Positions 2 through 16,581 of a stretch of 64,000 nucleotides of DNA are shown here, one piece after another. Source of the DNA: Candidatus Woesearchaeota archaeon. GTDB lineage: Archaea > Nanobdellota > Nanobdellia > Woesearchaeales > GW2011-AR9. A program made the translations under genes and the position numbers. Location: positions 6,223 through 70,222 of the forward strand of contig JABHQW010000001.1 in NCBI GenBank assembly GCA_018696595.1. Direction: 5' to 3'. The notes under the pieces were generated by a model, which saw nothing but the letters and a program-made list of their open reading frames with translations, was not told the DNA's origin and did no database searches. Numbering within the stretch: position 1 is the first letter of the stretch; each line of letters begins with the position of its first letter.

Positions 2-247
2 TTATTATTACTAATTTCTAGAGTTTATTATGAAAAGAAGAAAGTTAAACTTCTAAAAGACATCAGATTTAATTTAGATCAGTTAAACATTTATCATGGC
101 ATTAAAACACATAAACAAAAAAAGGGAATGTTCGTTGGATTGTTTGATTTACTGAAAAGAAAAAGAAGGGAAAAGAAAGTTGCTAAAGAGTTCTCTAATG
201 ATGTTGAGGAAGAACCTAAAAAAAAGAGTAAGAAGAAGAAAAAATGA
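2..247 (+). CDS. hypothetical protein, 3' end only (gene begins upstream of the window); Lys-rich C-terminal tail
   Basis: Open frame 2 from the window edge to TGA at 245-247; the stop overlaps the ATG of the next gene (ATGA); no recognisable domain. Confidence 0.3.
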   Translation, partial: LLLLISRVYYEKKKVKLLKDIRFNLDQLNIYHGIKTHKQKKGMFVGLFDLLKRKRREKKVAKEFSNDVEEEPKKKSKKKKK

Positions 248-930
248 AGATTACTGTTAAAAAAAGTGTTTTCAAGAAATATTCTAAATTAAAGATTGCT
301 TTTGTTTTCGTAGAAGGGATTAATAATAGCATGAAACTAGAAGAATCTAAACATTTACTTAAAGAAACTGAACAATTGATTGGATTTACTTTTAACAAAG
401 ATACAGCTAAAACACATCTACTTATTTCTCCTTGGAAAACTGCTCAAGAAGAATTTGGCAAAGAAGCTAAACATTATCAGACTTCTGTAGAAAGGTTGAT
501 TAAGGCGGTTATTAAAGGTAAGACAACTGCCACGGGAAATGTTGTTGGTAATTTATCTAGATACTTAGCTTTGAAACATATTGTTCCTTTCGGTGTTGAT
601 AATTTTGATAAAATCAAAGGAGATTTAAATTTTGATTTAGCAACAGGAAGAGAGAAAGTAGGAGTTTTGAGAAATCTTAAGAAAGGAGCATTGTATTACA
701 AAGATGAAAAAAGAATCTTAGGAACAAAATTAGATTATTGGAAATCAAAAAAAACGGTTTTAGATAAAAAAAGCAAATCTGCTTTGATTCATTTTGAGAT
801 TCTTCCGCCAGTTAATGGTAAGAAATTGGGCGAGTTACTTAAAGAAACTAAAGATTTAGTTAAAACCTTTTGTAATGGTAAAGTTAGTTCTTTTGTATTA
901 GATGAGAATAATAAAGTTAAGAAAATCTAA
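244..930 (+). CDS. B3/4 domain protein (PheT-like tRNA-binding/editing fold), standalone
   Basis: 228 aa; the central segment VERLIKAVIKGK..GNVVGNLSRYLALKHIVPFGVDNFDKIKGDLNFDLATGREK fits the B3_4 domain pattern; ATGA overlap with the upstream gene. Confidence 0.5.
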   Translation: MKITVKKSVFKKYSKLKIAFVFVEGINNSMKLEESKHLLKETEQLIGFTFNKDTAKTHLLISPWKTAQEEFGKEAKHYQTSVERLIKAVIKGKTTATGNVVGNLSRYLALKHIVPFGVDNFDKIKGDLNFDLATGREKVGVLRNLKKGALYYKDEKRILGTKLDYWKSKKTVLDKKSKSALIHFEILPPVNGKKLGELLKETKDLVKTFCNGKVSSFVLDENNKVKKI

Positions 931-967
931 AAAATAAAAAAATAAGTTGGTTTCCCAACTATTTGAT

Positions 968-1345
968 TTACTCTCCTGTCAACAAATCCTTAATCTGGTC
1001 ATAATATTGGATAGCTTCCCCAACAGTTAATGCACCAGAACAAATCATTCCTGGAGCATTTGCTTCGTAAGCAGTTTGGAAAACCCTAACAAGATGTTTA
1101 TTTTGACCAAATCGATCAAGGTATTGTTCAATAACTTCACCCATGCTCATACCAGTTTCCTGCAAGGTTCTCATGTAACTCTTTATGGTCATCAACATAA
1201 ACCCATATTCAGCATCTCTTAGGAACTGTTCTGAACCATCATTTACAACTCCAATTCTAGTTCCAAATCTTTCCATTCCTTCTGGAGGTTCATGGTCCTG
1301 AAATCCTTCTAACCTTTCTTCAAGTTCTGTTATTCTTTCCGTCAT
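968..1345 (-). CDS. hypothetical protein (third gene of the repeated-leader cassette)
   Basis: 125 aa ORF; preceded by the conserved leader AACATACAGGGGGTGAAAAAAA directly before the ATG. Confidence 0.4.
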   Translation of the reverse strand: MTERITELEERLEGFQDHEPPEGMERFGTRIGVVNDGSEQFLRDAEYGFMLMTIKSYMRTLQETGMSMGEVIEQYLDRFGQNKHLVRVFQTAYEANAPGMICSGALTVGEAIQYYDQIKDLLTGE

Positions 1346-1387
1346 TTTTTTTCACCCCCTGTATGTTATATTGCTTTTTTTTATTTC

Positions 1388-2101
1388 TTACAATTTCTCG
1401 TAAGCCTTTGTTAATTCTGCAGCAAGCAATCTTGCAATGTATCCTGGATCTTTTCTCAACTCTCTGCTGATTTCTATCTGTATTGAGTGGTCTTTTTTTC
1501 CAACATGGTATTGTGTTCCAGTAGTCTCTTCCCAAGCAGGAAAGACTTTTCCCATTTTAGCAGTTCTTCCTTTTTCAGATCTCAAGGCATCATCTAAACT
1601 TAATCGCATTTGCCGAGTCATTTCAATGTTGGTTGTAACTCTTCCCTTGCTTCTGGTTCCGTCTTCTTTTACAGCTTCTGGATGAAATGTTGCTCCTTGG
1701 TACTTCTTCCTTTTTTGTCTCCATTTTACTCCAATTCCAAGGTCTACACCCAAATCTCCTCGATCTTCCATTCCATGAATATAAACAACCAAAGCATGTT
1801 CTTTGCCATCATGTTCTTTTACTGAGTACCCTCTCGCTTCTTCTGCAGATTGACTTATATCTGCATAGAATCGTTGCTTTCTTTGATCTGTAGATAAATC
1901 AGATATGTCGTTCAAGTTGCAGGACTTTCTTCTATGTTTTGTGTTCACTACCGCTGCTGAATCCATGATCCTAGCAACTTCTTCTGCAACAAGATCAGTA
2001 AGTTCATCATCACCTGCACCATGTGGAGCAACGATTACAAACTTACTTTCTCCTGTCCTTCTCCAACCGTATTGTGTTTCTGTTCTTTTCATTTTTTTCA
2101 C
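1388..2101 (-). CDS. zinc amidohydrolase of the gamma-PGA hydrolase (PghP) / N-formylglutamate amidohydrolase superfamily
   Basis: 237 aa; APHGAGDDELT resembles the PghP HGGxIExGT zinc motif, with a second His in VVYIHGMED; same conserved leader before the ATG. Confidence 0.4.
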   Translation of the reverse strand: MKKMKRTETQYGWRRTGESKFVIVAPHGAGDDELTDLVAEEVARIMDSAAVVNTKHRRKSCNLNDISDLSTDQRKQRFYADISQSAEEARGYSVKEHDGKEHALVVYIHGMEDRGDLGVDLGIGVKWRQKRKKYQGATFHPEAVKEDGTRSKGRVTTNIEMTRQMRLSLDDALRSEKGRTAKMGKVFPAWEETTGTQYHVGKKDHSIQIEISRELRKDPGYIARLLAAELTKAYEKL

Positions 2102-2160
2102 CCCCTGTATGTTATATTGTTTTTGTGTTGTTTTTAAAAAAATAAAAAATATCTTTGAAG

Positions 2161-3156
2161 TTATTCTTCAAAGATTTCAGTTATGGTCTTTCTATGTCTT
2201 TCTTTGCAATCCATGGCAGCTCTTATTCTTGGTAACCATACTTCTGCAAGTTGTTCTGTTGCTGCTTGAGAAGCATGTAAAGAGTAACCTGAAGTTTCAG
2301 ATCTTGCGTAAACTGTATCTGGAACTCTTCTTGCATCTGCCCATGGACGACCCCATTCCGGATCAATCTCTCCCCGAATTGCAAAAGTTGCTTCACCACT
2401 CTTTCCATGATAGACACTTCTTTTAGAAAGATAGAAGTCGTGTTCTGCTGCAAACTTTTTCAGTTCTTCAACCATTTCTCCATCTGAAAAAGGCATCTTT
2501 AAATCTGCTCTTGCATGACCTATTACTGTTCCTCTTGGAGAAACATAAAAAGCGCCGGTTACTGGCTGGTGCATTAACGACATACTCCCTTCATCATCTT
2601 TTCCTTTAGGTTTTCCATGGCTGTACCAACTCAGATCACTAAAAGCCTTAATTCTTCCATCTATGAGAGCACTTTCAATTGCAGCTAAACCAAGATACTG
2701 GTCTTGAACTACTCTTTCAACAATTGGAATGCCAGTCAAAACTGAATATATTTCACGGCCTCCAATTCTGCAAGGATCGGTGTAATCGCCACCCAGACTA
2801 AAGATAGTTCCCAAGGACCTAGATAATGTGCCATATTGTTCGCCTCTTGTTAAGTCATCTATAATCCCATCAATACTACTGGAATGAACATCTACAACAA
2901 TTTTTCCTGATTGTCTTGCATAAGATTCAAAACCCTCACAACCCGACGCACCAACAAGTTTTGTTTTAGATTTTTGTACCAAACCAATAAGAGCTACTGC
3001 CATCTCATCTCCAAGATCACAACTACAAACACTACCTCCATCGTAGATAGCAACAGGTCTGTCTTCTCTCAATGCAGAGATAAATCCCATCAAAGTTTTG
3101 TGTTTCTCTATTTCTTTTTTTTCCATTTTTTTCACCCCCTTCACACTTTGCTTCAT
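2161..3156 (-). CDS. hypothetical protein (first gene of the repeated-leader cassette)
   Basis: 331 aa ORF; leader GGGGGTGAAAAAAA-ATG; no recognisable motif. Confidence 0.4.
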   Translation of the reverse strand: MKQSVKGVKKMEKKEIEKHKTLMGFISALREDRPVAIYDGGSVCSCDLGDEMAVALIGLVQKSKTKLVGASGCEGFESYARQSGKIVVDVHSSSIDGIIDDLTRGEQYGTLSRSLGTIFSLGGDYTDPCRIGGREIYSVLTGIPIVERVVQDQYLGLAAIESALIDGRIKAFSDLSWYSHGKPKGKDDEGSMSLMHQPVTGAFYVSPRGTVIGHARADLKMPFSDGEMVEELKKFAAEHDFYLSKRSVYHGKSGEATFAIRGEIDPEWGRPWADARRVPDTVYARSETSGYSLHASQAATEQLAEVWLPRIRAAMDCKERHRKTITEIFEE

Positions 3157-3265
3157 TGCGTCGTGCTTATTTATTACATTTTAGTAGTGACACAATAGTT
3201 ATTTAAAACTTTGTTGTAAGGAAACTGACGAAAGATTTAAATAAGAACAAAGTCTAAAATTAAAT

Positions 3266-3799
3266 ATGGCAACTAAAAAGAAAGATGACGGACATTTTTT
3301 TAACCATTCAAAGATATTAGAATTTAACATGAATGTGGATGCACAATTGATTACAAAATCTAATTTCATTTTTGGTGCAAGTACCTTAGTTTTGATGTTT
3401 GTTTTATACCAAGTATTTGCTGAAAAGTTAATATTAGATGGTTTGGCCAATAAATTACCTTGGTTAATATTAATTATTGGAAGTTTTACTGCTGCCTTGT
3501 TGTCAATGATGGTAATTATGCCAAAGATTTTTTTATTTTCTAAAAAAAAGAGAGTTAAAGAAGACATATTTTATTATAAGAATATCAACAAATTTTATTC
3601 TCGTGAGAAATATGCTGATTACCTCTATGATTTACCGCGTAATGAAAGAAAAGTTTCCGATGCATATGCACACCAAATTTATTCATTAGCTAACACGATC
3701 CTTCCGTTTAAATTTAAGATGATAAAAATATCTGGTTGGATGTTAACATTCTCAATCCTGTTAAGTATATTAACATACTTTGCAATGAGTTTATTTTAA
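3266..3799 (+). CDS. small membrane protein (2-4 TM helices)
   Basis: 177 aa; hydrophobic segments FIFGASTLVLMFVLYQVF, LPWLILIIGSFTAALLSMMVIM and C-terminal WMLTFSILLSILTYFAMSLF; BRE/TATA CGAAAGATTTAAATAA about 25 nt upstream. Confidence 0.4.
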   Translation: MATKKKDDGHFFNHSKILEFNMNVDAQLITKSNFIFGASTLVLMFVLYQVFAEKLILDGLANKLPWLILIIGSFTAALLSMMVIMPKIFLFSKKKRVKEDIFYYKNINKFYSREKYADYLYDLPRNERKVSDAYAHQIYSLANTILPFKFKMIKISGWMLTFSILLSILTYFAMSLF

Positions 3800-3813: not shown

Positions 3814-4530
3814 ATGTACGAAGCAGAGCTTAAAGAACTGGGACTAACTGAAAACGAGATTAAAGTATATCTTATTCTCCTAGAAAATGGCATTCTTAAT
3901 CCCAGTCATATTGCTCAAAAAACAGGGTTACACCGATCTTATGTTTATGATACCTTAGAAAGGTTGATTGATCGAGGAATAATTAATACTGTTTTAGTAA
4001 ATAATAAAAAACATTATCAGCCAGTAGACCCAAAAGCATTAAGACAATCATTCGAGTTAAAGTTAATGAAGATTGATGAAATTTTGCCTAAATTATCTGG
4101 ATTGTTTAAATCTACTCAAGAAGAAACAAAAGTTGAATTACATAAAGGAAAACGAGTTTACAGAACATTGATCAAAGATTTAACTGCTAACCTAAAGAAA
4201 AATGATGTTGTGTATTTGTTAGGGGCAGATGAAAAAATCTTAGAAACAGTTGAACCCATCTACTTAAAACAATATTTGACAATAATTAAGAACAAGAATG
4301 TTAAAGAAAGAATTATTGTTCGGAAAGGTACTAAAAAATTAAAAGAAAAGAATATTGAATACAAAGAACTAGATAAACAATATTTTGATGAAACTACAAT
4401 TGTAATCCATCAGAACAAAACTTACATTTTTATTTGGGGTAACCCTTATCATTTAATTGTGATTGAAAACAAAAAAGTAGCTAGTACTTATCTTAAACAA
4501 TTTGATTTATTATGGGATATTGCAAAATGA
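3814..4530 (+). CDS. TrmB-family HTH transcriptional regulator
   Basis: N-terminal LTENEIKVYLILLENGILNPSHIAQKTGLHRSYVYDTLERLIDRGII is a TrmB-type winged helix; start chosen at ATG 3814, overlapping the preceding membrane-protein gene. Confidence 0.6.
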   Translation: MYEAELKELGLTENEIKVYLILLENGILNPSHIAQKTGLHRSYVYDTLERLIDRGIINTVLVNNKKHYQPVDPKALRQSFELKLMKIDEILPKLSGLFKSTQEETKVELHKGKRVYRTLIKDLTANLKKNDVVYLLGADEKILETVEPIYLKQYLTIIKNKNVKERIIVRKGTKKLKEKNIEYKELDKQYFDETTIVIHQNKTYIFIWGNPYHLIVIENKKVASTYLKQFDLLWDIAK

Positions 4531-12011: not shown

Positions 12012-12416
12012 TAGACTAATCTTATTATCATCATTTATGATGAAGCATATTTTTGATGAGGAAACTTATTACAAGGGAAAGGAGAGTAAGATTTCTTTAA
12101 CCAAGTACGCATCTCTATTTGTTTGATCAATTCGCGATTAAGTTTTTTCTTCTTCATTTTTTCCACAAATTTTAAATATCAATATTGTTTTTAACCATTT
12201 AACCTTTAGCGAGGTTTTGTTAGGGGGAGGAACTTGTTTCTCCTTTCTAACTTTTTTCAACTGCAAAAGAAGTAACCAGTATTGCCACCCCTTCTACCCC
12301 ATTAAAATATAGTTTACTCGCTAATGTTTTGAGGTAAGTAAAACTAAGATATAAACTTACTTACAGATATTTTTATCAAAACGCCGAATCCAACTGATTT
12401 GTAGCGGAAAAGTAAA

Positions 12417-13514
12417 TTAAACATTAAATCCAACAAACTTCTTCTCTTCTTTAACACGATCATATAAATCAATTACCGCAATTAAATCTTTATCACGAAT
12501 CATCAGTTCCTCTTTACACATTGGCTTGCCCATTGCAGAAGATTGCATAAAATATTGGATTTGATTAAATGATGCTTGTTTCAGAACATTAGCAATGTCT
12601 GCACCAGTCATTCTACAAGCATACATCATTTCAGATAAACCTTCTGAATTAGTAAGTTGGTAAATTTCTCGGTTCGCTTTCTCTTCTTTCATTCTCATTT
12701 GTTTAACAAAGATATCTTCAACACCAGCTAAGTTGGGTTTAGGGATTTCAACAACATAATCAAATCTGCCTGCACGTAACAAAGCGTCATCAATCTTTTC
12801 TAAGTAATTAGTAGCGGCAACAAAAATTAGTCCCTCATTGTTGCCCATCCCATCCATTGTTCTTAACCAAACGTTCACACATCTGTCCACAACTTCATGA
12901 CCATTATGGCTGCCTTTCTTCCTAAACATTTGTTCTGCTTCATCAACAAACAACATTACCTTTCGTTCAGTTTGATGATATTTCTTTCTAGCAGAGTTAA
13001 TCGCAGCTTCCAGATTTTGTTCTGCCTCACCAACATACTTACTAATAATCAAACTCAAAGGCAATTCTAAAAACCAACATCCAAGTTCATTAGACATTGC
13101 TTTAGCAATCATAGTTTTCCCTGTTCCGGGAGGTCCGTACATTAACAACCCTTTCGGAGGATCAATCCCGTAGGAAGAGTAAGCGTAAGGGCAATCAATC
13201 CCATACTCAAAATGTTTGATCTTTTCTAAGACAGAATCTAAACCGCCAATATCAGAGTAAGAAGTTTCTTCTTGGCTTAAAGCGATTTTTAGTGAAGAAG
13301 GAGGATTAGATAATTGATGGATTTGTTTTTCATATTTCTCAATAATCTTTTTTTGTCCTTCAATAACTTGATCTTGGACATATAATCTATCAGCAATACT
13401 TTTAACAAACTGTTCTGCTTCCTCTTCCGAAATCTCTTCATCTTCTTCTATGATTAAATCTTCTAGATCTTCTTCATCTTCGTTCTCTTCCTTCTTCTTT
13501 TTTGGATCAACCAT
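12417..13514 (-). CDS. AAA+ ATPase (single classical AAA domain) with acidic N-terminus
   Basis: Walker A GPPGTGKT, Walker B LFVDEAE, second region of homology ATNYLEKIDDALLRAGRFD; 9 nt downstream of the nuclease gene. Confidence 0.75.
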   Translation of the reverse strand: MVDPKKKKEENEDEEDLEDLIIEEDEEISEEEAEQFVKSIADRLYVQDQVIEGQKKIIEKYEKQIHQLSNPPSSLKIALSQEETSYSDIGGLDSVLEKIKHFEYGIDCPYAYSSYGIDPPKGLLMYGPPGTGKTMIAKAMSNELGCWFLELPLSLIISKYVGEAEQNLEAAINSARKKYHQTERKVMLFVDEAEQMFRKKGSHNGHEVVDRCVNVWLRTMDGMGNNEGLIFVAATNYLEKIDDALLRAGRFDYVVEIPKPNLAGVEDIFVKQMRMKEEKANREIYQLTNSEGLSEMMYACRMTGADIANVLKQASFNQIQYFMQSSAMGKPMCKEELMIRDKDLIAVIDLYDRVKEEKKFVGFNV

Positions 13515-13523
13515 TTTCTAACT

Positions 13524-13841
13524 CTAATCTTTATGATAATGTATAGGTACAATTTTTTTCTCCTTACCAGAATAATAAAAAGTTCTAATTTCAGCACAAT
13601 CTCCAAGTAATAAATGAGCACGCTCCATTTGACTGACAGCTTTATCATAACCATCATTAGATTTTACTTCATAAATATCCCAACAGTCTCCATTAATCCC
13701 CACTAAATCTAACTCGCCAGCGTCGTTTCGAGAAGGAGGCATACGATAAACAACATTCTTCATTACAATTTGATACTGATCTCTAACCAAAAGTTCAAGT
13801 TCGTCTAATGCTTGATCGTGTTTATTTTTTCCGTGGCTCAT
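13524..13841 (-). CDS. Hjc/YraN-like PD-(D/E)xK endonuclease
   Basis: 105 aa; E...GELDLVG...(10)...YEVK matches the Hjc/UPF0102 catalytic pattern. Confidence 0.45.
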   Translation of the reverse strand: MSHGKNKHDQALDELELLVRDQYQIVMKNVVYRMPPSRNDAGELDLVGINGDCWDIYEVKSNDGYDKAVSQMERAHLLLGDCAEIRTFYYSGKEKKIVPIHYHKD

Positions 13842-13929
13842 TCTTCTTCACCGGTTTCTTTCTCTTTTCCTCTTCATAAGGAGGCAGGTGGTCGTACCAT
13901 TGCAACCATTTTTTTCTTCGTCTCATTTT

Positions 13930-14139
13930 TTAATGATCATTCTCCAGATATTTTTTTGCTGAAAAGATGTACACCTTGCCATTAGGAAAATATTGACACC
14001 CTTTCTCCTCACTGAAAAGATAAGTTGTAAACTCATCATAACCAAAAGGAACATCCATTTCTCCCAGTTCAGTTTTTACGGGAACGTTCAGGTAATGAAA
14101 TTCTTCAACGACTTCTTGCAAAGATTTGTATTCAACCAT
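13930..14139 (-). CDS. hypothetical small protein
   Basis: 69 aa ORF inside the co-directional gene string. Confidence 0.3.
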   Translation of the reverse strand: MVEYKSLQEVVEEFHYLNVPVKTELGEMDVPFGYDEFTTYLFSEEKGCQYFPNGKVYIFSAKKYLENDH

Positions 14140-14387
14140 TATTGATCACCACAAAAATAGATGTCGTGTTCTTTTGTGCGGACGTAAAAACACCCAAAGA
14201 GATCATTCAATTTTTCATCTGAACATCCACAATAGACCTTACGCCCTTCTTTCTTCTTAATTACCAAGTTGCATTGTTCAGAAATTTCAGGATAAGCAAG
14301 ATCGCACAAATTCAAAGTTTTTTTCTCACTACAACCAACTAAGGATAATGCCAATGTAAGTCCAACAATTAATTTGTTCAGACTCAT
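14139..14387 (-). CDS. small Cys-rich lipoprotein/secreted protein
   Basis: Signal peptide MSLNKLIVGLTLALSLVGC followed by several Cys; overlaps its neighbours by 1-4 nt. Confidence 0.4.
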   Translation of the reverse strand: MSLNKLIVGLTLALSLVGCSEKKTLNLCDLAYPEISEQCNLVIKKKEGRKVYCGCSDEKLNDLFGCFYVRTKEHDIYFCGDQ

Positions 14388-15202
14388 AGGCTCACCCGAA
14401 TTTCATGTTTTGTCCCATCTAATTTCAAAAGTGGACTACCTTTTCTCATCGGCTCTAAAGATTTCATGTGTGCATAACTACCCCAATGATTCAAATAAGA
14501 CCCAGTAAGAATGAAATGTTTCTGCGCCTCGATAACTTTCTTGTTTCTTAAATCTGCAGAATAAAAATTCTTCACATGATGACTTAGTTGATGTAAATGA
14601 CCCATGGCGTAAACTTCTGCCTCTGCTAAGTTTGCCAGATCAATAACACCTTTTATTTTTGTATGTGGCATTCTTGCTCCGGAAGCGCCGTGAGTAGTGT
14701 ACAAGGTATATCCTTGTTTTCCCACCAAGAAATAATGCATTTTTCCCCAACCAAAGTAAGGAACGTCTAACTGTTTAGCCATGATTTTAGAAAGATTTAA
14801 TCCCGCCTGATTGTAAACACGATTCTCATGATTACCAGGATGTAATCCTAGAATTAATCCATTATCTGCTAATGGTTTGTATATTCCCAAAAAGTGATCT
14901 AATTGTTGTTCTAATATTTCATCTTGTTCATACACCCCAGCACCAACAGAATCACGCGTAGCAGTTTCTAATTGGTCACCCATTAGAATTATTGGAATCT
15001 CTTTCTCATAACAATGTTCCAACACTTCTTTATGCATATCAGCATCATAATATCTTGACCCGATATGTTCGTCACCAATTAACATCACACTTAATTTTTC
15101 AACATCAAACTTGCGATAATTTAACGTCGGCTTTAATTCATTTTTTGCAGCAGCTTTTTTCATTGATTCCCATTCGGAAATCTTATCTGATAGTTCACCC
15201 AT
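14384..15202 (-). CDS. calcineurin-like metallophosphoesterase
   Basis: LIGDEHIGS (GDxHG), LMGDQLE, GNHE and GHLH motifs. Confidence 0.65.
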   Translation of the reverse strand: MGELSDKISEWESMKKAAAKNELKPTLNYRKFDVEKLSVMLIGDEHIGSRYYDADMHKEVLEHCYEKEIPIILMGDQLETATRDSVGAGVYEQDEILEQQLDHFLGIYKPLADNGLILGLHPGNHENRVYNQAGLNLSKIMAKQLDVPYFGWGKMHYFLVGKQGYTLYTTHGASGARMPHTKIKGVIDLANLAEAEVYAMGHLHQLSHHVKNFYSADLRNKKVIEAQKHFILTGSYLNHWGSYAHMKSLEPMRKGSPLLKLDGTKHEIRVSL

Positions 15203-15223
15203 TTTTCACCACCTCTAGCGAGT

Positions 15224-15469
15224 TTATTCATTCTTCCAATTCTTAATCACATTGTACGGCCACTTTGATTGTAGTTCTTCCATCAATTCACGGTAATGTG
15301 TTATAACCCCACAATCATTGCACGCATATTCGTAACGAAAATTATATTCTCCTGATTCGTTTCTTTTCTGCCCTAGATATTCAATGTTACCCTCACATTC
15401 ACGACAACTAAGATCGTAAAATGTAGGAAAATCAATCAATTGTTGCTCAAATTTTTTGTCAAGAGTCAT
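15224..15469 (-). CDS. zinc-ribbon protein
   Basis: 81 aa with CRECEG...CNDCG paired CxxC. Confidence 0.45.
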   Translation of the reverse strand: MTLDKKFEQQLIDFPTFYDLSCRECEGNIEYLGQKRNESGEYNFRYEYACNDCGVITHYRELMEELQSKWPYNVIKNWKNE

Positions 15470-15518
15470 TTTCCTTTAGCGAGTTTAAATTGTCCTGCCA
15501 TATTGACAAGACCATTCT

Positions 15519-16403
15519 TTACATTCTACATTCTTCAAAATGGTCATCAATATTCATTATCACATAATCAGTAATTTCACAAATAATTTTTGAGTCCATA
15601 GCGATAGCTAGTCCTGAATTCTCCCGATGAAAAGGGCCACCAGCATTGTGAATTAAGTAAGCGCTGATGATTCCAGCCCAATACAATTGATCGTCTTTTT
15701 TAACAAAGAGAGCCCCACCAGAATTTCCAGGGTTAGCAGTGAGATCCAATATCTTTCTTGAAGAGTTTGGTACAGTAATACCATTTACTTTATCTTCAAA
15801 TTCATAATGAAACGGATAGTTACCCGGATTAGCGACTATACCTCCCGTAGTTGCAGGAAACATTCCTAAAGGATATCCGACCAGATAAACTTCTTCACCA
15901 TACCTTAGATCTGAACTTAGTTGAAGATTATTCTCGGGAAGAAAGTTTAGTCTTTGATCCGTTCTTAGAATGGCTAAGTCCAATTCCTCAGATTCAAAAA
16001 CAATTTCTAAAGGGATGTCATCATCTTTATTATTGTCAAACTTCGAATCAATAATTTTAATATCAACTTTAGTTCGATCATATTTAGTTCCATTAACGTT
16101 CTGTTCAAAACCCCCAACAACATGTTGATTAGTAATTAAGTAAGAGTAACCATCAACGTCACGATAAGCAAAACTAGAACCATATCCTCCGGCGTTGAAT
16201 GTGTTTCCAGCCTGATCCTGATATTCTCTTTCTGAAAGTAAACAGTATGTGGAAGAGATTAAATCATCTAATGTAACTTCTTTTTCTGAGATTTCATGAG
16301 TGGCGCCATAGTTATTAATGGGAACATGTTGCATTGGCACACAAGCTGTTCCTGTTCCCACCAATAATGTTGCGGCTGCAATTAAGTTAACAAGTTTATT
16401 CAT
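15519..16403 (-). CDS. secreted trypsin-like (S1/HtrA-like) serine protease
   Basis: Signal peptide, His block TNQHVV, Asp in LDLAIL, GNSGGALF catalytic Ser motif. Confidence 0.7.
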   Translation of the reverse strand: MNKLVNLIAAATLLVGTGTACVPMQHVPINNYGATHEISEKEVTLDDLISSTYCLLSEREYQDQAGNTFNAGGYGSSFAYRDVDGYSYLITNQHVVGGFEQNVNGTKYDRTKVDIKIIDSKFDNNKDDDIPLEIVFESEELDLAILRTDQRLNFLPENNLQLSSDLRYGEEVYLVGYPLGMFPATTGGIVANPGNYPFHYEFEDKVNGITVPNSSRKILDLTANPGNSGGALFVKKDDQLYWAGIISAYLIHNAGGPFHRENSGLAIAMDSKIICEITDYVIMNIDDHFEECRM

Positions 16404-16453
16404 TCATATCACCTTTAGCGAGTTTTTTTGATTCTCAAAAATGGAAATGGTTT

Positions 16454-16523
16454 GTATACGGGGCACGGCGGACATCGTACTCCCTTAGAGTACCCGCCTC
16501 AGCAAGCTAGGGCCCCCGTATAC
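16454..16523. other. GC-rich nested stem-loop element (possible small ncRNA or operon-internal processing/terminator structure)
   Basis: GUAUACGGGG...CCCCGUAUAC 10-bp outer stem enclosing GGCGG/CCGCC and GUACUC-CCUUA-GAGUAC hairpins; T-tracts on both sides; GC about 60% against about 30% background. Confidence 0.4.
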
Positions 16524-16581
16524 AACTAACACCCATTTTTTGATTTGATTTTAATGGTGGATTAACATCCAAACTTTAGTT

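Follow-up and report, generated by a model that had tools for sequence, protein, structure and literature searches.

A predicted strong Shine-Dalgarno leader repeated before each gene of a hypervariable operon next to a TrmB-family regulator in a Woesearchaeota archaeon

We consider it somewhat probable that a strong Shine-Dalgarno (SD) leader precedes each cistron of a hypervariable cargo operon, divergent from a conserved TrmB-family regulator, in a Candidatus Woesearchaeota archaeon, and that this leader serves as the joint at which cistrons are swapped. The host is a tiny symbiotic archaeon with a reduced genome. DPANN archaea have tiny genomes and yet carry strain-specific orphan genes, whose gain, expression and regulation are poorly understood. 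The window analysed here is a stretch of 64,000 nt from this archaeon (GCA_018696595.1, contig JABHQW010000001.1, 6,223-70,222 of the forward strand). Among related Woesearchaeota, the regulator, the palindrome-bearing divergent promoter, a 5′UTR of ~50 nt and the leaders are kept, while the protein-coding cargo varies.

Architecture of the locus

The cargo operon, consisting of genes A, B and C, lies between the divergently transcribed TrmB-family regulator and a B3_4-domain gene (Table 1), and the same right-hand B3_4 boundary is found in the related loci L001, L003 and L007. The three genes are mutually unrelated and are not paralogues. An earlier note on this DNA gave A and B lengths of 331 and 237 aa; the leader-linked starts give 321 and 234 aa instead, and leave C at 125 aa as it was. 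In L001 and L042, the upstream ATG that would lengthen A is not in frame, and the NCBI annotation of A is likewise 321 aa.

Table 1. Features of the cargo operon and its surroundings in the window
Feature	Position	Strand	Remarks
B3_4-domain gene	244..930	+	Pfam PF03483; right-hand boundary of the variable slot
Hairpin AGTTGG-GAAA-CCAACT	945..960	.	T-runs on both strands
Gene C	968..1345	-	125 aa orphan; cargo position 3
Leader 2, copy before C	1346..1378	-	AAAAGCAATATAACATACAGGGGGTGAAAAAAA
Gene B	1388..2092	-	234 aa; predicted metal-dependent amidohydrolase, PghP / YndL / N-formylglutamate-amidohydrolase fold
Leader 2, copy before B	2093..2124	-	AAAAACAATATAACATACAGGGGGTGAAAAAA
Terminator-like element after A	2136..2175	-	10-bp hairpin ATCTTTGAAG-AATAA-CTTCAAAGAT, then T6AT7
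Gene A	2161..3126	-	321 aa orphan; cargo position 1; from the ORF list
SD module of leader 1	3127..3140	-	AGGGGGTGAAAAAA, directly before the ATG of A
Conserved 5′UTR, 5′ part of leader 1	3141..3179	-	ATG-TAA-TAA start-stop (3179-3171), then ATAAGCACGACGCAATGAAGCAAAGTGTGA
Divergent promoter and putative operator region	3200..3243	.	Sequence reading and alignment A4
PycTM-like 2-TM protein	3266..3799	+	Separates the regulator gene from its promoter
TrmB-family wHTH regulator	3814..4530	+	Pfam PF01978; divergent partner of the cargo operon

The regulator belongs to the TrmB family by its N-terminal TrmB wHTH domain (PF01978, E 2.8e-18), and its orthologues are found in 24 DPANN species. In the intergenic region, a cargo-side TATA box (TTTAAATA, 3207-3200, minus strand) and a regulator-side TATA box (3235-3243, plus strand) enclose the palindrome GTCAGTTTCCTTAC (3229-3216), which takes the form GTAAG-N4-CTTAC in relatives. 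This arrangement of palindrome and TATA boxes stands upstream of the TrmB orthologue in >20 species, and the palindrome is probably its operator. The start-stop of the 5′UTR coincides with the predicted transcription start. The 5′ part of leader 1, which occurs once in the window, is kept whichever of five different genes comes first (A, A′, B, Y or Z; alignment A4). A search for conserved RNA structure in the 5′UTR or the leaders found none; Rfam had no match at gathering score across the 64 kb, nor a meaningful one at E<=1 in 900-3300, and the window yielded no tRNA.

The hairpin after A is far more stable than expected (MFE z -4.8). With its T6AT7 run it implies that B and C may need read-through or a promoter of their own. 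By its sequence, the hairpin at the other end of the operon, where C and the convergent B3_4 gene meet, resembles a terminator for both directions.

The gene between the regulator and its promoter encodes a PycTM-like protein (Pfam PF18967, E 1e-10; PADLOC PycTM, E 9e-12). It is an insertion in this strain only and is missing in L001, L003, L011 and L042. A Pycsar defence system was rejected, as this PycTM-like effector stands alone and Pfam finds a cyclase domain neither in the cargo genes A, B and C nor in their neighbours. In PADLOC none of A, B, C, Y, Z and the L037 genes has a match, only the PycTM-like neighbour; with the cargo blank and this neighbour lacking a cyclase partner, the cargo was not taken as a defence system either.

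The repeated leader

The sequence GGGGGTGAAAAAAA is present in exactly three copies in the 64-kb window, all on the minus strand (3139-3126, 2105-2092 and 1359-1346), and each abuts, at a distance of 0-1 nt, the ATG of one of the three unrelated genes. No further match exists in the 64 kb even when two mismatches are allowed, so that the earlier statement that the motif is absent elsewhere in the window holds. That all three genes carry the same 30-nt leader holds in part: the shared motif is real, but the leader of A ends in GCAAAGTGTGAAGGGGGTGAAAAAA-ATG, not AACATACA, and only the 15 nt upstream of the ATG are common to all three. Similarly, the first two copies (A and B), described as near-identical over about 30 nt, agree at 27/30 positions once the first 5 codons are counted in, and the longer, 28-nt leader is shared by B and C only. 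This 28-mer, CAATATAACATACAGGGGGTGAAAAAAA, has exactly two copies in the window against a chance expectation of 0, and the B and C leaders are 85% identical over 48 nt. When the 45 nt upstream of 78 ORFs were compared all against all (3003 pairs), the B/C pair scored 29, against a shuffle maximum of 12-16.

The leader copies have the position and complementarity of an SD sequence. GGGGGTGA sits 6-7 nt before the ATG and pairs with the anti-SD GAUCACCUCCU, which is assumed here after the general archaeal pattern, the 16S rRNA gene lying outside the window, and which agrees with the GGAGGTGAT SD consensus of other genes in the window. The predicted duplex of -15.0 kcal/mol places A, B and C at a tied rank 1-3 of 69 genes. 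The next-strongest value is -13.5 kcal/mol, and those of the ribosomal proteins L1 and L10, EF-1alpha and EF-2 are -11.7, -11.4, -9.3 and -7.3 kcal/mol, respectively. Leader 2 is unstructured (B-to-C spacer MFE -0.7 kcal/mol, z about 0). The leader thus reads as a strong, unstructured SD translation-initiation region, GGGGGUGA followed by an A-run and AUG. About 25 of the 69 genes lack an SD and carry a TATA box near -30, and are therefore leaderless.

The view that the leaders are translation-initiation modules specific to this cassette is borne out as far as prediction goes, since they have the strongest predicted SDs and the exact extended leader is confined to the cassette. The earlier note allowed that the leader might be the common ribosome-binding context of many genes, with unrelated and scattered homologues of A, B and C. 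Half of the first part applies: an SD core (GGAGGTGA-like) is common in this genome, standing in varied contexts before ~18 of the 69 genes, but the extended leader is not. The second part fails: A, B and C have few homologues, and these are grouped beside the same TrmB orthologue.

In leader 2, the non-SD half (AATATAACATACA) equals the SD in conservation, which a pure SD role fails to account for. Its conservation might reflect homogenisation driven by recombination, or equally a binding site or a promoter.

Beyond the window, leader 2 before B is 100% identical in L042 and L043, and its 25-nt pattern is found in JGI metagenomes at this locus only, with a single match on a 269-kb contig. A search of 27 other loci (3237 within-locus gene pairs) for shared leaders next to the SD returned only two pairs, Z/A of L003 and B/186aa of L037, which belong to the same TrmB-linked operon family; repeated SD leaders are found in three lineages of this family. 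Each lineage has its own uniform version: CAATATAACATACAGGGGGTGA in the window, GGGAGGTAAAAAAAG in L003 and CGCAGTAAnnnCTGCGGGAGGTGA in L037, the last containing a 16-bp palindrome or hairpin. Of 15 occurrences of the extended SD GGG[AG]G(G)T[AG]A in 417 kb, 12 belong to this operon family, a share inflated because the loci were fetched via the operon's own genes. A 'GCAATGAA' box conserved across distant lineages was considered and dropped, the 8-mer being too common by chance (29 observed, ~14 expected). A second gene cluster in the window has a leader of its own, with a conserved part 5′ of the SD, AAACTCGCTARAGG.

Gene replacement among relatives

All variants of the slot adjoin the TrmB orthologue. 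A-B-C is the common haplotype (>24 contigs), represented by the window, L007, L008 and L036. In L043 A and B are followed by another gene; B-Y is found in L001 and L035, Y alone in L011 and L019, Z-A in L003, A′-B′-X on one JGI contig, and 138aa-B-REC-186aa in L037. A, B and C are thus found independently and recombined in the same slot of relatives, which speaks against the proposal that they were acquired or duplicated together.

Homology between slot variants ends at the leader/ATG boundary. Window 3239-3120 aligns with L001 5886-6007 and window 2104-1315 with L001 5987-6779, and the two alignments overlap in the SD module only. L043 and the window agree at every position over 1,514 nt, after which the end of B has diverged by 36% (24/66 substitutions); the 27-nt core of leader 2 is again identical (0/26 substitutions versus 24/66 in B; Fisher p 1e-4), and an unrelated gene starts at the ATG behind it. 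In this comparison, the leader core is shown to be more conserved than the adjacent coding DNA. Gene replacement between relatives is therefore bounded by repeats, as in the PeSL cassettes of phages. The leaders are not the sole crossover sites, since the left recombination breakpoint of L043 lies inside B.

Origin of the cassette

Foreign origin is not borne out by composition: the G+C content of the cassette is slightly raised (z +1.3 to +1.8), yet the GC3 of its genes is native (z -0.04 to +1.0). The suggested phage link is not borne out either. In PHROG, C has a marginal match (E 0.13) and A and B have none, IMG/VR has no relatives of B, and tblastn against GenBank phages gave one marginal match for B and none for A. 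Two viral matches to an 18-mer lie inside unrelated sequence and were set aside as chance.

Proposed mechanism and alternatives

In the reading that we favour, each cistron would be a module of SD leader plus ORF, translated efficiently and independently from a polycistronic or read-through mRNA. Such SD-driven translation would matter where most promoter-proximal genes are leaderless. As conserved direct repeats within and between genomes, the leaders would act as joints for homologous or microhomology recombination, which could delete, insert or replace cistrons in register and would also keep the leader copies near-identical by concerted evolution. Acting through the palindrome, the TrmB-like protein is probably a repressor of the two divergent promoters. 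SD function, operon structure and operator role are each inferred from sequence. A wider formulation, tentative and itself rather doubtful, is that Woesearchaeota possess a 'plug-and-play' expression slot, in which a fixed frame of TrmB, operator promoter, 5′UTR with its AUG-UAA start-stop and SD leader receives orphan genes exchanged between strains by leader-guided recombination, making it an integrase-free functional analogue of an integron. If this were true, the second cluster with its private leader would suggest that cluster-specific leaders generally organise the accessory genome of these archaea.

The conservation of the non-SD half of leader 2, far beyond that of neighbouring coding DNA, is what would be expected if the leader were the recognition site of a trans-acting factor, such as an RNA-binding protein, an endoribonuclease or a small RNA, with a role in the post-transcriptional co-regulation or processing of all cistrons, swapping being a by-product of this conservation. 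The uniform leader version of each lineage and the conservation 5′ of the SD in the second cluster point the same way, and the SAS elements of Cluster K mycobacteriophages, for which such a role has been proposed, offer a precedent (PMC3203893). We regard this as improbable, though the least so of the alternatives: no candidate factor has been identified, the window contains no antisense (complementary) copy of the leader, leader 2 has neither structure nor an Rfam match, and the lineage-specific versions would demand repeated co-evolution of the factor. Leader 2 could instead be a duplicated internal archaeal promoter, with a BRE-like AAAARC and a TATA-like AATATAAC ~19 nt before the ATG, from which B and C would have nearly leaderless transcripts of their own. 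The strong terminator-like hairpin and T-run after A leave B in need of a source of transcription, the TATA-like part is conserved, and AAAAAAGC-AATATAAC resembles the promoters of the leaderless gene 49765 (AAAAAAGC-TTATAAAC) and of gene 38266 (AATATAAAC). The spacing fits poorly, as 18-21 nt separate the end of the TATA-like box from the ATG, compared with ~22 nt in the leaderless genes of the window, this distance varies with the length of the A-run, and the predicted start falls inside or after the ATG of B and C. The three strongest SDs in the window would then be left unexplained, outside the mRNA, and the L003 leaders of the same operon family have no TATA-like box, so that we think an internal promoter unlikely.

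Far less probable still is the reading of the earlier note, that A, B and C were acquired or duplicated as a single unit, perhaps of phage origin, with identical leaders as the trace of a recent event. The B and C copies are indeed identical over 28 nt, and the slightly raised G+C and the frequency of the A-B-C haplotype would suit it. This reading is largely refuted by the comparative loci, in which A, B and C stand apart or in other combinations in the same slot and the same leaders precede different genes; native GC3 and the failure to find viral relatives also argue against it. Unrelated, promoter-less ORFs in the same orientation, separated by a repeat and variable between strains, together with the palindrome of the L037 leaders, recall an integron-like array of site-specifically recombined cassettes with the repeat as an attC-like site. 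To this we give hardly any credence: in no variant is there an integrase or recombinase within 5-6 kb of the slot, leader 2 has no inverted repeat and the B-to-C spacer no fold beyond chance, the repeat occupies the 5′ ribosome-binding position and not the 3′ position of attC, and no att-like repeats flank the cassette beyond low-complexity matches.

Comparison with known systems

The swap-joint reading makes the locus a modular operon with portable leader joints, which may be regarded as analogous to the SAS and PeSL elements of phages. SAS and ESAS are short motifs with an SD core before unrelated non-structural genes of Cluster K mycobacteriophages (Pope et al., 2011, PMC3203893). Like them, the leaders are asymmetric and near-identical, contain an SD core, stand a few bases upstream of the ATG of unrelated genes, are absent from the rest of the genome (for the leaders, of the 64-kb window), are kept across relatives before different gene families, and have an extended upstream part in some copies. 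The two share no sequence similarity. SAS occur in actinobacterial phage genomes in 11-20 copies with no demonstrated link to gene swapping (PMC3203893), whereas the leaders occur in a cellular DPANN archaeal chromosome in 2-4 copies within one regulator-linked operon, with replacement breakpoints at the leader.

PeSL (promoter-early stem-loop) cassettes of T4-type phages are repeats of a sigma-70 promoter and a terminator, and recombination between these repeats inserts, deletes and replaces whole genes (Arbiol et al., 2010, PMC2839356; Comeau et al., 2014, PMC4122927). Like PeSL, the leaders are regulatory repeats that are conserved between the genes of hyperplastic, ORFan-rich regions, and the A-to-B spacer combines a terminator-like stem-loop (hairpin and T-run) with a putative expression signal (the leader). 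The leaders differ in that their conserved core is a predicted translation signal, the SD, in that the B-to-C copy has no stem-loop, and in their archaeal host. With integron arrays and CALINs the operon has in common unrelated ORFs in the same orientation behind one upstream promoter, strain-variable content and a repeat between ORFs, but there is no integrase and no folded site of the attC type, the repeat is a ribosome-binding leader, and exchange apparently proceeds by homologous recombination. The regulator resembles TrmB systems in its N-terminal wHTH and in the autoregulatory layout of a palindrome between divergent TATA boxes. It differs from the family in being short (238 aa) with an uncharacterised C-terminal domain, and its target operon has no sugar-metabolism genes and no conserved content.

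The model is testable: a conserved frame and short leaders would let unrelated genes swap in register with immediate expression, where leaderless mRNAs are otherwise the rule. A principle described until now for phages (PeSL, SAS) would then hold for the chromosome of a cellular archaeon as well. The leaders may also provide natural strong translation-initiation modules for archaeal expression design, to judge from their predicted pairing, and the small set of co-varying orphan families A, B and Y, tied to one TrmB-like regulator, is flagged for functional study.

Cargo proteins

Homologues of A are rare (4 in 5.8e9 proteins; 12 representatives in 1.84e9), and Pfam, PADLOC and NCBIfam contain no match. 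A has conserved Cys/His residues, and its N-terminal region gives a weak thioredoxin-like match (PDB profile 3lor only, E 0.017), beyond which a family profile of 13 members found nothing in PDB and Pfam. Its structure model is unusable (pLDDT 36.6). C has no homologue other than itself, and each of its occurrences, on 46 contigs, is part of A-B-C; in L043 and L001 other genes take its position.

B is a predicted zinc amidohydrolase with a fold like that of PghP, YndL and N-formylglutamate amidohydrolase, in agreement with the earlier note. It matches PF05908 (E 4e-6; 26.8 bits versus a gathering cutoff of 22) over residues 12-56 only, in its N-terminal part. Its AlphaFold model (pLDDT 82) was searched with Foldseek against PDB and BFVD, with 5onj (E 2.3e-5), 3a9l (E 2.8e-5) and 2odf (E about 2e-5) as the top matches, at probability 1.0. 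The TM-scores are 0.37-0.46 for 5onj and 3a9l and up to 0.57 for the FGase-like 2odf, and a sequence search against PDB chains gave no match. The alpha/beta fold is thus shared, on the predicted model, with PghP-like proteins (PF05908; 3a9l, 5onj, 2odf and 2q7s; Foldseek E 2e-5 to 3e-4), as are an N-terminal HG..D/E motif and a later IHG histidine, and H24, D28/D29 and H106 are invariant or nearly so (alignment A1). B differs from these proteins in its low identity (10-15%), its TM range of 0.37-0.57 and its lack of a signal peptide and of a phage context. In a CPR-like bacterium, a 31% homologue of B adjoins the gene of a RimK-like ATP-grasp ligase.

A repeated putative Shine-Dalgarno leader

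Three consecutive minus-strand genes, A, B and C, each carry a repeated Shine-Dalgarno (SD) leader, leader 1 upstream of A and leader 2 upstream of B and C, read from the sequence (Table). For the 14-mer GGGGGTGAAAAAAA, a search of all 64 kb that permitted up to two mismatches gives three matches and no more, which bears out the earlier note in its claim that the motif occurs nowhere else in the window. A 28-mer of leader 2 is present in exactly two copies (chance expectation 0), and the B/C upstream pair scores 29 against a shuffle maximum of 12-16 (45 nt upstream, 78 ORFs, 3003 pairwise comparisons). The common leader that the same note placed ahead of all three genes holds for the 14-mer but not for the full element, as A lacks AACATACA; only 15 nt upstream of its ATG are common, and the match of 27/30 includes the first five codons. 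The lengths of 331 and 237 aa given there become 321 aa (A) and 234 aa (B) with leader-linked starts; in relatives A's upstream in-frame ATG falls out of frame, and the NCBI call is 321 aa. The A-run between SD and ATG differs among copies and strains (A6, A7, A7+G, A7+TA) and so alters SD-ATG spacing; this variation could tune translation or reflect slippage.

The source organism of the matching proteins is, by database records, Candidatus Woesearchaeota, a DPANN archaeon. In about 25 of the 69 window genes a TATA box (TTTATAAA-like) stands at about -30 without an SD, and these are therefore read as leaderless; about 18 carry SD-like motifs near GGAGGTGA in varied contexts, so that the SD core is ordinary for this genome, unlike the duplex strength and the exact extended sequence. 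With GAUCACCUCCU assumed as anti-SD in its usual archaeal form (the 16S gene lies outside the window), A, B and C form the three strongest predicted duplexes in the window (-15.0 kcal/mol), the next being -13.5 and -12.6, with -11.7 and -11.4 for ribosomal proteins L1 and L10 and -9.3 and -7.3 kcal/mol for EF-1alpha and EF-2. Leader 2 is unstructured (MFE -0.7 kcal/mol, z about 0).

A 25-nt leader-2 pattern matches JGI metagenomes at this locus only and has a single match on one sister-species contig of 269 kb. In a comparison of 3237 within-locus pairs from the 415 ORFs of 27 further non-redundant loci, SD-adjacent shared leaders were found only between Z and A in L003 (GGGAGGTAAAAAAAG-ATGGA) and between B and a 186-aa gene in L037 (AAATCGCAGTAAnnnCTGCGGGAGGTGAA), all cargo of the same TrmB-linked operon family; the remaining high-scoring pairs are ordinary TATA-box promoters. 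In 417 kb the extended SD GGG[AG]G(G)T[AG]A, 3-9 nt ahead of ATG, has 15 occurrences, and this operon family accounts for 12, a count biased by retrieval of the loci via the operon. Thus three lineages, those of the window, L003 and L037, have their own leaders, lineage-specific and uniform within each, a pattern that is, as far as sequence tells, one of concerted evolution.

Positions of features (window coordinates unless a locus is named)
Feature	Position	Strand	Detail
B3_4-domain gene	244-930		convergent with cassette; Pfam
Gene C	968-1345	minus	ATG at 1345; leader ...aaaagCAATATAACATACAGGGGGTGAAAAAAA-ATG
Gene B	1388-2092	minus	ATG at 2092; leader ...aaaaaCAATATAACATACAGGGGGTGAAAAAA-ATG
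Gene A	2161-3126	minus	ATG at 3126; leader ...gcaaagtgtgaAGGGGGTGAAAAAA-ATG
A-runs	1346-1353, 2092-2098, 3126-3132		SD-ATG interval; also in relatives
ATG-TAA-TAA start-stop	3179-3171	minus	20 nt past cargo TATA; conserved
Cargo-side TATA box	3207-3200	minus	TTTAAATA
Palindrome	3216-3229		GTA(A)-N6-8-(T)TAC, then CGAAA and TATA box, ahead of TrmB orthologue
PycTM-like two-TM protein	3266-3799	+	Pycsar effector type; between TrmB promoter and TrmB start codon
TrmB-family regulator	3814-4530		divergent from cassette; PF01978 E 3e-18
Second-cluster leader, 1 mismatch	12216-12203	minus	chance expectation 0.02
AAA+ ATPase	12417-13514	minus	PADLOC IetA E 9e-28
Second-cluster leader, exact	15225-15212, 15486-15473, 16425-16412	minus	AAACTCGCTARAGG
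Trypsin-like protease	15519-16403
Inverted repeat	16450-16540	minus	TTGTATACGGGGGCCC ... GTGCCCCGTATACAA
Homing-endonuclease-like ORF	L003 3956-4621		LAGLIDADG type
B homologue and ligase	L039 5001-6750		31% identity to B

Proposed cargo exchange at the leaders

Decisive evidence comes from the comparative anatomy of the slot between the TrmB-family regulator and the B3_4-domain gene, the cargo of which differs between related genomes. It is A-B-C in the window, L007, L008 and L036; A-B-other gene in L043; A'-B... in L042, where the contig end falls within B; A'-B'-X (with variant A and B) in one JGI contig; B-Y in L001, L002 and L035; Y alone in L011 and L019; an A-like gene (26% identity) in L032; 138aa-B-REC-186aa in L037, B being 42% identical; and 94aa-B-133aa-137aa in a second JGI contig. 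A TrmB orthologue adjoins every arrangement whose flanks are readable; the L042 contig includes the regulator's start, and the short L043 contig covers A-B-other only. By alignment, promoter and 5'UTR are kept whichever of five genes (A, A', B, Y or Z) comes first. Four genes follow a copy of leader 2: B and C, both in the window, Y of L001 and another (MKKKILLIEDQ...) in L043. In L003 a homing-endonuclease-like ORF lies two genes past the variable slot.

Between the window and L001, homology covers 3239-3120, breaks off and resumes over 2104-1315; the two alignments overlap solely in the 21-nt SD module of L001, the footprint expected if recombination between SD modules had lost or gained A. 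Over 1,514 nt L043 and the window do not differ, after which 24 substitutions fall in the final 66 nt of B and none in the 27-nt leader-2 core (Fisher p 1e-4), with an unrelated gene from the ATG on; the window and L001 follow the same trend (18/81 vs 1/27 substitutions, lower in the core, p 0.04). L042 shows about 80% identity to the window within A and 100% from the last ~150 nt of A across leader 2 into B. From these comparisons the locus therefore appears to be a recombination mosaic, in which the leader is a conserved island linking different genes.

We consider it somewhat probable that each cistron of the cargo operon, which is linked to the regulator, is a module of SD leader plus ORF, and that the leader serves both strong translation and cistron swapping. 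It would give each cistron strong, independent translation, a signal needed because only promoter-proximal genes can be leaderless in this genome; since it recurs as a conserved direct repeat, both inside one genome and from genome to genome, it could also be the joint used when cistrons are deleted, inserted or replaced, and such exchange would keep its copies near-identical. In leader 2 the non-SD half (AATATAACATACA) is conserved to the same degree as the SD, which could reflect recombination-driven homogenisation or, alternatively, a recognition site of a trans-acting factor, a rather unlikely candidate, or a weak internal promoter. The last is improbable on geometry, since its TATA-like box lies at a varying 18-21 nt from the ATG, not 22. 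Joint acquisition of A-B-C, suggested earlier, is poorly supported and very doubtful, as cargo varies independently in relatives (A-B-other, B-Y, Y alone), and an integron-like mechanism, likewise poorly supported, is scarcely credible. Compared with the phage SAS (Cluster K mycobacteriophages) and PeSL (T4-type), the leader differs in that it lies in a cellular archaeal chromosome, is tied to one TrmB-like regulator and is conserved around a core that is a translation signal.

Regulator and flanking elements

Read along the minus strand, with coordinates falling, the intergenic region holds in turn the regulator-side TATA, palindrome, cargo-side TATA, ATG-TAA-TAA, 5'UTR and SD module. The palindrome, which reads GTAAG-N4-CTTAC in relatives but is slightly degenerate in the window, is likely an autoregulatory operator; the order palindrome-CGAAA-TATA upstream of the TrmB orthologue is kept in >20 DPANN species (including loci L011-L032). 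We infer that the regulator represses both divergent promoters. ATG-TAA-TAA, invariant in five variant loci, occupies the usual ATG position of this genome's leaderless genes and could be what is left of a leaderless start, or else a minimal uORF with a regulatory role where the cargo mRNA begins. A 10-bp hairpin with T6AT7 (z -4.8) lies downstream of A and a bidirectional hairpin with T-runs downstream of C; neither hairpin nor T-run was found downstream of B. The PycTM-like gene is a precise insertion in this strain, not present in L001, L003, L011 or L042, and no cyclase partner is present.

Cargo proteins

B matches PF05908 (E 4e-6, N-terminal residues 12-56 only), and its AlphaFold model (pLDDT 82) finds YndL 5onj, PghP 3a9l and FGase-like 2odf and 2q7s as best Foldseek matches (E 2e-5 to 3e-4, TM 0.37-0.57), besides viral FGase/PghP/amidase-like folds. 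Because H24, D28/D29 and H106 are also invariant or nearly so in the alignment, B is a predicted metal amidohydrolase of the PghP/FGase-like superfamily, in agreement with the earlier PghP-like reading. In L039, a CPR-like bacterial contig with T4SS pilins, PBP and RuvC, a RimK-like ATP-grasp ligase immediately follows a B homologue; this suggests an amide-ligase/amidohydrolase pair and hints at amino-acyl or glutamyl amide chemistry for B. A belongs to a rare orphan family (12 representatives in 1.84e9 proteins) with conserved Cys and His residues and a weak thioredoxin-like match; its structure model is unusable. A homologue search with C returned only itself, and Y and a 181-aa protein of L037 have weak receiver-domain matches. 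A phage link of the cassette, hinted at in the earlier note, finds no support, the cargo showing no links to PADLOC, NCBIfam or viral sequences and a sole, marginal PHROG match, for C. Nor does composition point to foreign origin: although GC is a little raised (z +1.3 to +1.8), GC3 is native.

A second leader cluster

At 12203-16425 on the minus strand, a second cluster has a private repeated leader with its conserved portion 5' of the SD. Its three exact copies lie just 5' of the ATGs of unrelated genes, encoding a trypsin-like lipoprotein, an 81-aa zinc-ribbon protein and a metallophosphatase-like protein. Just upstream of the cluster stands a long inverted repeat, rich in G+C, that resembles a structured RNA, with no match in Rfam or a tRNA search. 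The AAA+ ATPase of the cluster, whose AAA matches are generic, and the nearby trypsin-like protease could be an Iet-like defence pair.
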